A stretch of DNA of 64,000 nucleotides, from the NCBI GenBank assembly GCA_003327425.1, contig QOQW01000007.1:71901-135900 (forward strand). Reading direction: 5' to 3'. Made by a program: the position numbers and the translations under genes. How positions within the stretch are numbered: position 1 is the stretch's first letter; each line of letters begins with the position of its first letter. Below are positions 57,908 to 58,678 of this stretch, one piece after another. The stretch is from Candidatus Ozemobacter sibiricus. GTDB taxonomy: Bacteria > Muiribacteriota > Ozemobacteria > Ozemobacterales > Ozemobacteraceae. The notes beneath the pieces are model-generated. The model worked only from the letters and a program-made list of their open reading frames with translations, did not search any database and was not told the origin of the DNA.

Positions 57908-58678
57908 TCAGGTCAGCCCTGGAAGGCCCAGCCTCTTCAAAGCCAGGTAGATCTGTCCCACCGTTGAAGTAAGAGAAGAATCCTGCTGGCGAGCGGCGTT
58001 GATCTGGGCCAGCGATTTGTCCATATCTCCCGGATCCCCTCGACCGTAATAGGCCCAGGCCAGGAAGGCATGGGCCTCGGCATTGGTGACCCCGATGGCT
58101 GTGTGGGTGACCGACAGGACGAAGGATGGGGCCCCCAGGCCCAGCGATTCGAAGAGCCCGACGGCCTCGCGCAGGTCGTTCATCTGGGCGCGCTGCACGA
58201 GAGCGCAGGCTTTGCCCAGGATGGACTCGGGATGGTTGCCCGCCTGGGTGAAATCGGCCAGACCATTGACCATGCCGAATGCTTTGCCTCGAGCCCACCC
58301 GAGTCCATTGTATGCTTCGCTCTTCTCCTGGGCGGTTGCATCGGATCGGGAGACCACTTCCTGGAACTTGACGATGGCCGATTGATATTGGGCTGCGGTC
58401 ATCAAGTTCCAGCCTTCGGTAAGGAGCTGGGAAGGGCTGGCCGTCCCGGTGCCCGTTCCCGTGCCTGTCCCAGTTCCGGTGCCGGTTCCTGTTCCTGTCC
58501 CCGTCCCAGTTCCGGTGCCCGTGCCGGTCCCGGTCGGTCCAATCGGGTTCTCGCCCGGCAGGATCTGACGGCCGCTCCCCCCACCACCGCAGCCGTTGGC
58601 GACAAGGAGAGCGATCAGAACCCCCAGCAGGAAGGGCAGCAACGCGCGGTTCGAACGAGTCATTGGCATGATGCTCAC
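57908..58678 (-). CDS. TPR-like lipoprotein with (Gly-Thr)14 linker (paralog of 47189..47887)
   Basis: Signal + lipobox-like [12 protein letters not shown]…[31 protein letters not shown] linker, then a helical domain alignable with the 47189..47887 product (…[13 protein letters not shown]…, …[15 protein letters not shown]…). Its GTG start overlaps the giant-2 stop (GTGA). Confidence 0.6.
58448..58534 (-). repeat. Coding (GGN-ACN)n hexanucleotide-type repeat encoding (Gly-Thr)14
   Basis: Imperfect tandem repeat ccNgtNcc… visible in DNA between 58448 and 58534. Confidence 0.7.

Follow-up and report, generated by a model that had tools for sequence, protein, structure and literature searches.

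Predicted tetratricopeptide-repeat lipoproteins paired gene by gene with giant immunoglobulin-repeat proteins in Candidatus Riflebacteria and other phyla

Type IX secretion system (T9SS) biology is known almost wholly from Bacteroidota, and the export, positioning, and retention of bacterial proteins of 3,000-4,000 residues are poorly understood. In Porphyromonas gingivalis, the tetratricopeptide repeat (TPR) lipoprotein PorE (PG1058) stands alongside a beta-barrel and a cargo with a C-terminal domain (CTD) in the PorE-PorP-PG1035 complex; PorE is involved in the export and anchorage of CTD proteins (PMC5053529, PMC9143113) and also has a carboxypeptidase-regulatory-like domain (PMC5053529). 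In Flavobacterium johnsoniae, the giant CTD surface protein SprB has a dedicated adjacent partner gene, sprF, and SprF, like other PorP-type proteins whose genes neighbor type B CTD cargo, binds its cargo (PMC9143113). SprE/PorW, likewise a TPR lipoprotein, sits on the periplasmic side of the CTD-protein export machine within the T9SS extended translocon (PMC10994853). Here, we describe a 64,000-nucleotide stretch of Candidatus Ozemobacter sibiricus (contig QOQW01000007.1, positions 71,901 to 135,900; hereafter the window) in which two small predicted TPR lipoproteins, lipoA and lipoB, are each encoded directly downstream of a giant immunoglobulin (Ig)-repeat protein with a probable T9SS-type CTD, an arrangement that recurs across several phyla.

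The genes run along the minus strand in the order giant1, lipoA, giant2, lipoB, and a PorV-family barrel. Giant1 (58675..63999), the Ig-repeat protein upstream of lipoA, carries Big_5, Big_13, and FlgD_ig domains in Pfam and NCBIfam scans. At least 1,774 amino acids (aa) of it are visible and its N-terminus lies beyond the window end; since the frame is still open there, the open reading frame (ORF) listed as 1,756 aa is an N-terminally truncated view. Its orthologues exceed 3,250 aa, and one measures 4,264 aa. LipoA is taken as 57908..58669 (253 aa), because the GTG start at 58678 in the ORF list (256 aa) overlaps the stop codon of giant1 and a GAGGTG ribosome-binding site lies 6 nucleotides (nt) upstream of the ATG at 58669, which appears the more likely start; 5 nt then separate the giant1 stop from it. 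Giant2 (47934..57743) is a 3,269-aa Ig-repeat protein with a signal peptide and a ~450-aa C-terminal module that ends in a probable T9SS-type CTD. LipoB (47189..47887; 232 aa) begins at ATG 47887 with GGAG 8 nt upstream, and directly after it comes an outer-membrane beta-barrel (46046..47137). The barrel belongs to the PorV/PorQ family, with 125.1 bits on NF033709 (PorV_fam; cut-off 90), and scores under the cut-off of each of the NCBIfam equivalog models for PorV, PorQ, and PorV2. LipoA is a member of what we call the A-type subfamily (orthologues L006, 86% identical, L007, and L008) and lipoB of the B-type (orthologues L012 and L014-L039).

In logic, the closest analogue of this locus would be the PorE-PorP-PG1035 complex taken together with SprF-SprB. 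Unlike lipoA and lipoB, PorE is a single general component rather than one per cargo, and the two proteins have no detectable sequence relation to it (NCBIfam, E<0.1). The barrel beside lipoB is of the PorV/PorQ family and not PorP, and the host is a Riflebacterium rather than a member of the Bacteroidota. SprF is itself an outer-membrane beta-barrel, whereas the partner in the window is a small TPR lipoprotein; the CTDs of the window pairs, moreover, resemble type A or PorU-type domains, unlike the type B domain of the SprB kind. SprE/PorW shares the TPR lipoprotein character of lipoA and lipoB but is a much larger, single-copy core component that is not cargo-specific. No T9SS family matched either lipoprotein at NCBIfam E<=0.1, which leaves both, small proteins of a single domain, outside PorE and PorW/SprE.

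The pairing of lipoprotein and giant is the main finding. All ORFs of the fetched loci were translated and searched with the window proteins, and 56 pairs were extracted automatically: the two window pairs, the metagenome loci L001 and L003, and 52 genome loci. In these 56, and in L027, L051, and L059 besides, the lipoprotein gene lies directly downstream of a large ORF on the same strand, often after a gap of 0-10 nt. Where no partner is visible, the contig or locus begins inside the lipoprotein gene. In loci with visible upstream DNA and secure family membership, the partners are Ig-repeat proteins of 1,400 to more than 4,000 aa with a T9SS-type CTD; the upstream ORFs of L065 and L066, the two weakest and doubtful family matches, have no recognisable CTD. 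L001 encodes a 4,264-aa giant, a lipoprotein, and a 3,280-aa giant, while L003 encodes a 2,635-aa giant and a lipoprotein. A-type lipoproteins always stand behind a giant1-type C-terminus, with a giant2-type protein next where the locus is long enough; B-type lipoproteins always stand behind a giant2-type C-terminus and, in Riflebacteria loci of sufficient length, are followed by the PorV-family barrel (E 1e-140 to 1e-215). Within Riflebacteria, the order giant1-lipoA-(hairpin)-giant2-lipoB-PorV-family barrel is fixed. This cross-phylum gene-pair rule is solid and, to our knowledge, new; literature searches on Riflebacteria together with T9SS, on Ozemobacter, and on PorV2/PorU2 turned up nothing on this locus or family.

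The two members of a pair have also diversified together. Partner C-termini are homologous to those of the window giants over ~450 collinear aa. In the third Riflebacteria type and the Cloacimonadota type, the partners measure 1,650-1,820 aa; the ~450-aa C-terminal module is collinear throughout in the former and matched in parts only in the latter. Lipoprotein-domain distances track those of the last 300 residues of the partners (Mantel r = 0.85, a value equalled in 0 of 2000 permutations), and lipoprotein clusters correspond to partner clusters. Paralogues within a genome sort with their own partners, and the pair therefore duplicates as a unit. An initial annotation of the locus had paired an envelope lipoprotein with a giant cargo, and that association is borne out by the 56 pairs, the three further loci, their spread over several phyla, and the Mantel correlation. 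The annotation had gone on to suggest an anchoring or adaptor role. With the pairing conserved gene by gene and lipoprotein and partner co-diversifying, such a role can reasonably be inferred, although a structure prediction of the two as one fused chain, described below, returned no ordered interface. We favor, tentatively and with somewhat less than even confidence, the reading that every lipoprotein serves the giant whose gene lies directly upstream, as a dedicated adaptor tethered to a membrane.

LipoA and lipoB are paralogues, as had been proposed. BLASTP aligns them at 46% identity and 62% positives over 175 aa (E 4e-49), a similarity far beyond chance, and both have a signal peptide, a lipobox cysteine, a Gly/Thr-rich tether, and a TPR domain. 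Among the motifs quoted in support of their relation, EAYNGLGW and EAYNGIGW are present, whereas lipoB reads GVSNAEAHAMLA, with S in place of the T that had been reported. LipoB is identical in sequence to RCK80283.1 (OZSIB_3465) of Ca. Ozemobacter sibiricus, annotated there as "hypothetical protein". The exact lipoA protein, tried with three alternative starts, was absent from a collection of 15 billion proteins that does contain lipoB; only P0001, a 121-aa C-terminal fragment on a 1,072-nt contig, represents it, and short-read assemblies or gene calls may be broken at its Gly-Thr (GT) repeat region.

Both N-termini consist of a basic n-region and a hydrophobic core followed by G|C. In lipoB the lipobox, LLASG|C, conforms to the core pattern of PROSITE PS51257. 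That of lipoA, LVANG|C (Cys27; signal peptide and lipobox read from the sequence at 58589..58669, minus strand), departs from the pattern through Asn at -2, a residue found there in several relatives as well. The cysteine is invariant in a six-sequence alignment and holds the same position across the wider family; 46 of 57 complete members match PS51257, and 53 of 57 do so with Asn permitted at -2. The lipobox claimed for both proteins thus stands, lipoA matching the pattern save for that Asn, and by the criterion for substrates of signal peptidase II we regard both as predicted bacterial lipoproteins.

AlphaFold2, run on the six-sequence alignment, leaves residues 1-74 of lipoA disordered (predicted local distance difference test, pLDDT, <50) and folds residues 79-246 into nine helices (pLDDT >90). 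Eight of these pair up as four hairpins and the last is a capping helix; a conserved loop of 20 aa precedes hairpin 4. This C-terminal domain (57911..58435, minus strand) had been called helical and TPR-like, a view that the structure prediction and Foldseek both support. The top Foldseek matches in the PDB are all TPR proteins (MamA, designed consensus TPR, PilF, BamD, and LapB), with weak E-values of ~1e-2 and template modelling (TM) scores of up to 0.6-0.7 when normalised by target. Since these matches are TPR proteins alone and weak, the fold of lipoA is best read as a generic TPR without a specific solved relative. Precomputed Pfam TPR matches exist for the distant family members P0005 and P0006; lipoA scores 15.3 bits on TPR_2 (cut-off 27) and lipoB 23.1 bits on TPR_19 (cut-off 25), both under the gathering threshold. 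Scans of the Pfam and NCBIfam libraries returned no family covering either protein, and a sequence-profile search of the PDB gave nothing significant (best E 0.19, an unrelated TPR protein). The best-conserved motifs, EAYNGLGW and GVTNAEAHA, occupy the first helix of hairpin 2 and that of hairpin 4. In TPR proteins, the first helix of each hairpin contributes to the wall of the concave groove used for binding, and in the predicted model the face bearing these motifs is likely the binding face.

Such a fold also invites comparison with general envelope-biogenesis lipoproteins. The PilF/PilW pilotins and BamD resemble lipoA and lipoB in size (~200-250 aa), N-terminal lipid anchor, and all-TPR fold, and PilF (2ho1, TM 0.49/0.56) and BamD (5waq) are among the Foldseek matches. 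If the family were BamD-like, or a pilotin of the PilF/PilW/Tgl type for the type IV pilus genes downstream, its adjacency to giants would be incidental. The gene neighborhood has some bearing on this: downstream of the PorV-family gene (41720-45971, minus strand) lie a 133-aa ORF (STAS/anti-sigma-antagonist-like by eye), aroE, pilB, and pilT, so that in Riflebacteria pilB and pilT fall 2.5-5 kb downstream of the pair. This order is kept in at least 15 Riflebacteria genomes (loci among L012-L057), and the nine-gene arrangement is therefore phylum-wide. The structural matches are nonetheless generic (E ~1e-2), with MamA and designed TPRs equally good; neither NCBIfam nor Pfam gives a match to BamD or pilotin families, and no family-level sequence similarity links lipoA or lipoB to them. 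Two to three paralogues occur per genome, each behind a different giant, and the partner is a CTD-bearing Ig-repeat protein rather than a secretin or the Bam complex. The pair persists, moreover, in Cloacimonadota, Poribacteria, KSB1, and other loci, and in the three distant loci with annotated flanks no pil or PorV-family gene is adjacent. We consider a general biogenesis role very improbable, and a pilotin role argued from the nearby pilB and pilT was rejected, given the pair in other phyla and annotated distant loci without pil genes beside it.

Between anchor and domain lies the tether, which is more than low-complexity sequence. A conserved peptide follows the position of the lipidated cysteine and a Gly run, and the low-complexity tract begins only after this peptide. 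In the A-type it reads GRQ(I/V/T)LPGENP (lipoA residues 28-42, 58544..58588, minus strand, predicted disordered), and GRQxLPGE(N/K) is kept in 17 of 17 members; in the B-type it reads GRY(T)(L/I)P(G/P)EIP. Further subfamilies have anchor-proximal peptides of their own, CSGGVNGEG...GTP(I/V)VRG or CGAAPGGD(S/T)LDGANGD.GLP.SG. The initial annotation had passed over this peptide. With this peptide right behind the lipid anchor, the tether is no pure spacer. In lipoB the tether (47714..47824, minus strand; residues 22-58) comprises G6, GRYTLPGEIP, and then a G-run/GT tract with ETD, and its linker sequence is CGGGGGGTGRYTLPGEIPGGSGGGGGTGTGTGGGGETD. A sortase-type acceptor role for the poly-Gly after the cysteine was dropped, as the N-terminus is not formed by a free Gly run and the idea had no support.

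Disordered spacers such as the LpoB tether and the Pro/Thr-box linkers of secreted enzymes are ones whose length matters more than their sequence. The tethers of lipoA and lipoB differ from the LpoB type in being mostly Gly-Thr or poly-Gly, in lying behind a conserved anchor-side peptide, and in having a subfamily-specific length. Counted from Cys+1 to the first helix, that length is 46.9 ± 6.3 aa in the A-type (range 33-58, n=17), 35.1 ± 2.1 aa in the B-type (range 32-42, n=23), 21.5 ± 0.5 aa in the third Riflebacteria type (range 21-22, n=6), exactly 22 aa in the Cloacimonadota type (n=8), and 10-14 aa in the most distant members. The unbroken GT run in the A-type varies from 3 to 17 units between species, and in some members GT gives way to Ser/Thr-rich tracts; P0003 has a Pro/Thr-rich linker. 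The B-type tether drifts in composition (G-runs, GT, GD) at nearly constant length, and this steadiness despite sequence drift suggests that length is under selection rather than free to expand.

The tether had been described as expandable and of tunable length, and its DNA as a (GGN-ACN)n repeat. The proposed count of 14 Gly-Thr units needs correcting, for lipoA has T(GT)15 (residues 46-76, 58442..58534, minus strand), and the tract is no clean DNA repeat: all synonymous GGN and ACN codons are in use, scrambled, and Tandem Repeats Finder reports period 6 at 74% match and longer periods (18, 30, and 36) at 77-79%. Scrambled codons and so low a repeat match make the tract a poor slippage substrate. 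Close lipoB variants comprise three distinct sequences, all 232 aa, with two substitutions within the tether and no indel; an A-type orthologue has four variants, all 253 aa and without length change, and four independent assemblies have identical repeat DNA. By the period-6 match of 74% and the absence of indels in these seven close protein variants and four assemblies, the tract does not qualify as a slippage-prone repeat or contingency locus. An exact 23-mer scan of metagenome contigs, aimed at strain variation in the lipoA repeat, found no match, and a protein-guided scan found one distant locus. Length does differ between subfamilies and, in the A-type, between species, so that part of the claim holds, but the B-type stays at 35±2 aa and close variants show no indel. 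From the sequences compared, tether composition is evolutionarily plastic, as is A-type length, and the tether is not demonstrably rapidly tunable.

The scheme that follows is one that we infer, in its binding and binding site, periplasmic orientation, membrane of residence, and role in export or positioning. Sec export and lipidation at the invariant cysteine would place the lipoprotein in an envelope membrane, facing the periplasm. The disordered tether, of subfamily-specific length (~35-50 residues here) and opening with GRQxLPGENP or GRYTxPxEIP, would act as a spacer. The four-TPR domain would bind the cognate giant, the likeliest site being the ~450-aa C-terminal module (beta-sandwich, Ig domain, and T9SS-type CTD), and the captured C-terminal end of the giant would be positioned at outer-membrane export or attachment machinery that includes the PorV-family barrel. 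We favor a periplasm-facing location because PorE and SprE/PorW face the periplasm and because the Lol pathway is reported to be practically absent from Terrabacteria; a preprint places the Riflebacteria among the diderm Terrabacteria and describes Lol as "practically absent" from the clade (10.1101/2021.05.31.446380).

A different placement would make the lipoprotein a surface anchor that acts after export: flipped to the outside, its TPR domain would hold the secreted giant while the tether set the stand-off, which is essentially the idea of the initial annotation. This alternative draws on the same pairing and co-diversification data as the adaptor reading, and on the non-covalent retention of type B CTD cargo by cognate partners, as in SprB-SprF and PG1035-PorP (PMC9143113). 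Tether length gives it a further argument, longer tethers occurring with partners of more than 3,200 aa and tethers of at most 22 aa with partners of 1,400-2,600 aa, but this trend comes from few phylogenetically non-independent groups. The lipoprotein, on the other hand, has no evident surface-export signal or barrel partner of its own, the T9SS TPR lipoproteins PorE and SprE face the periplasm (PMC5053529, PMC10994853), and with Lol practically absent from Terrabacteria the outer-membrane localisation is itself uncertain. We therefore rate a surface anchor as unlikely.

Several observations weigh against the dedicated-adaptor reading itself. Part of the co-diversification signal is the shared phylogeny of linked genes. 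The CTDs of the window giants fall under the Pfam and TIGR thresholds. If Lol is practically absent, the lipoprotein may remain at the inner membrane, and the scheme would then have another geometry. Finally, AlphaFold2 on a fused chain of the giant1 C-terminus and lipoA (unpaired alignment, without predicted aligned error) gave a predicted TM score of 0.40, with pLDDT <50 for the tether and conserved peptide and no ordered contact; a prediction of this kind is too weak to count against the adaptor idea.

The CTD assignments on which the adaptor reading leans are firmer among relatives than in the window. The giant1 C-terminus resembles the PorU CTD and TIGR04183 (22.2 bits, cut-off 23), and that of giant2 scores 20.4 bits on PF18962 (cut-off 27) and E 1.2e-19 in the PorU CTD region; for the two window giants, matches to the PorU model in its CTD region have E-values of 1e-14 to 1e-19. 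Among the relatives, the partners in L043, L060, and L067 pass Por_Secre_tail PF18962 (31.2, 32.5, and 47.7 bits, cut-off 27), those in L043 and L049 pass TIGR04183 (25.2 and 25.4 bits, cut-off 23), and those in L062 and L064 lie just under the thresholds for T9SS type A CTDs. Among the scanned ORFs of the 64-kb window, no T9SS core gene was found beyond the PorV-family gene and a distant C25-family peptidase (5267-7552, minus strand; 761 aa). The latter matches Peptidase_C25 (3e-49) and Propeptide_C25, has weak similarity to PorU or "PorU2" and a Gly/Pro-rich insertion, and may process CTD proteins. Genes for KdsD, of Kdo synthesis (4023-5018, minus strand), and MlaE/MlaD (18748-21682, plus strand) are consistent with a lipopolysaccharide-containing outer membrane.

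This peptidase raises the possibility that the lipoproteins serve proteolysis. NlpI (with Prc) and LbcA (with CtpA) are TPR lipoproteins that act as protease adaptors, and lipoA and lipoB, being small TPR lipoproteins, share their fold; they might recruit a peptidase such as one of C25/PorU type to the cognate giant, either to remove its CTD or to exert quality control. The C25-family peptidase in the window would be a candidate enzyme, and type A CTDs are cleaved on T9SS export (PMC5053529). Its gene, however, lies 40 kb off and was not found near any related locus, no NlpI-type family relation appears at NCBIfam E<0.1, and a generic protease adaptor needs no lipoprotein per giant. A protease or processing adaptor accordingly seems to us quite improbable, and we return to the dedicated adaptor as the preferred reading.

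The family is at present uncharacterised, and its conserved gene context suggests an accessory role, dedicated to one cargo, in how surface proteins are handled through their CTDs. If the dedicated-adaptor reading is true, CTD-dependent secretion or anchoring would gain, with the unit of giant and TPR lipoprotein, a class of accessory proteins dedicated to their cargo, and in uncultured phyla the unit would serve as a simple genomic marker of such cargo. A broader proposal, possible though doubtful in our estimation, is that small TPR lipoproteins form an unrecognised class of cargo-specific partners of T9SS-type CTD proteins, one per giant, duplicated and co-evolving with it, in Riflebacteria and other candidate phyla outside Bacteroidota; the tether would then be a molecular ruler matched to partner and envelope, and the conserved peptide a second docking site. 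For the ruler question, nature supplies a series within the family, in which tethers of GT repeats, poly-Gly, or Ser/Thr-rich or Pro/Thr-rich sequence have lengths fixed by subfamily. Should the lipoproteins prove unrelated to the giants, an ordinary uncharacterised TPR lipoprotein family remains.

That family is sizeable. A word-indexed search of 5.8 billion proteins returned six relatives, and 1.84 billion cluster representatives, searched exhaustively with a profile, yielded 484 at E<1e-3, 88 of them at E<1e-10, mostly 195-260 aa long with the domain C-terminal; some multi-TPR proteins were matched on their repeats alone. Scanning GTDB species genomes yielded 62 loci, the best 86% identical to lipoA, mostly in metagenome-assembled genomes (MAGs) of Candidatus Riflebacteria / Rifleibacteriota / Ozemobacteraceae. 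The more distant loci belong to Cloacimonadota, Avigastranaerophilus, UBP17, Poribacteria, KSB1, and unclassified bins. Over all these loci, nearly every member has a lipobox. Behind the lipoprotein of the third subfamily comes a conserved protein of 608-610 aa with CarboxypepD_reg and fibronectin type III domains (L046 10526-12358, L049 7033-8859). A few family members, P0079 and P0153 among the proteins concerned, have an extra domain between anchor and TPR, which by eye resembles a carboxypeptidase-regulatory-like fold or fibronectin type III.

The pair also has the appearance of a transcription unit. A hairpin between lipoA and giant2 (57833..57862, minus strand) consists of a perfect GC-rich 13-bp stem followed by a U-rich tail, with a minimum free energy of -33.5 kcal/mol (z -4.98); L006 and L007 keep it, and a compensatory change is seen there. 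In 14 of 16 loci the A-type gene has a strong hairpin behind it, often together with a U-run, and giant and lipoprotein therefore look bicistronic. In sequence, the hairpin resembles a terminator or attenuator; a consensus terminator scan missed it, the U-run criterion being narrowly unmet. Just upstream of the hairpin lies a purine-rich 14-nt tandem duplication, AAGGGAGTyAGGGA, in 2.2 copies (57864-57894, minus strand), which is not present in the orthologous regions of L006 and L007.

Finally, a few loci carry host labels at odds with their content. L009 and L056 (labelled Ca. Methylomirabilis), L041 (Actinomycetota), and L058 (Erysipelotrichia) are typical of Riflebacteria or Cloacimonadota, and L041 is nearly identical to L040; their gene content suggests mis-binned contigs in those MAGs.

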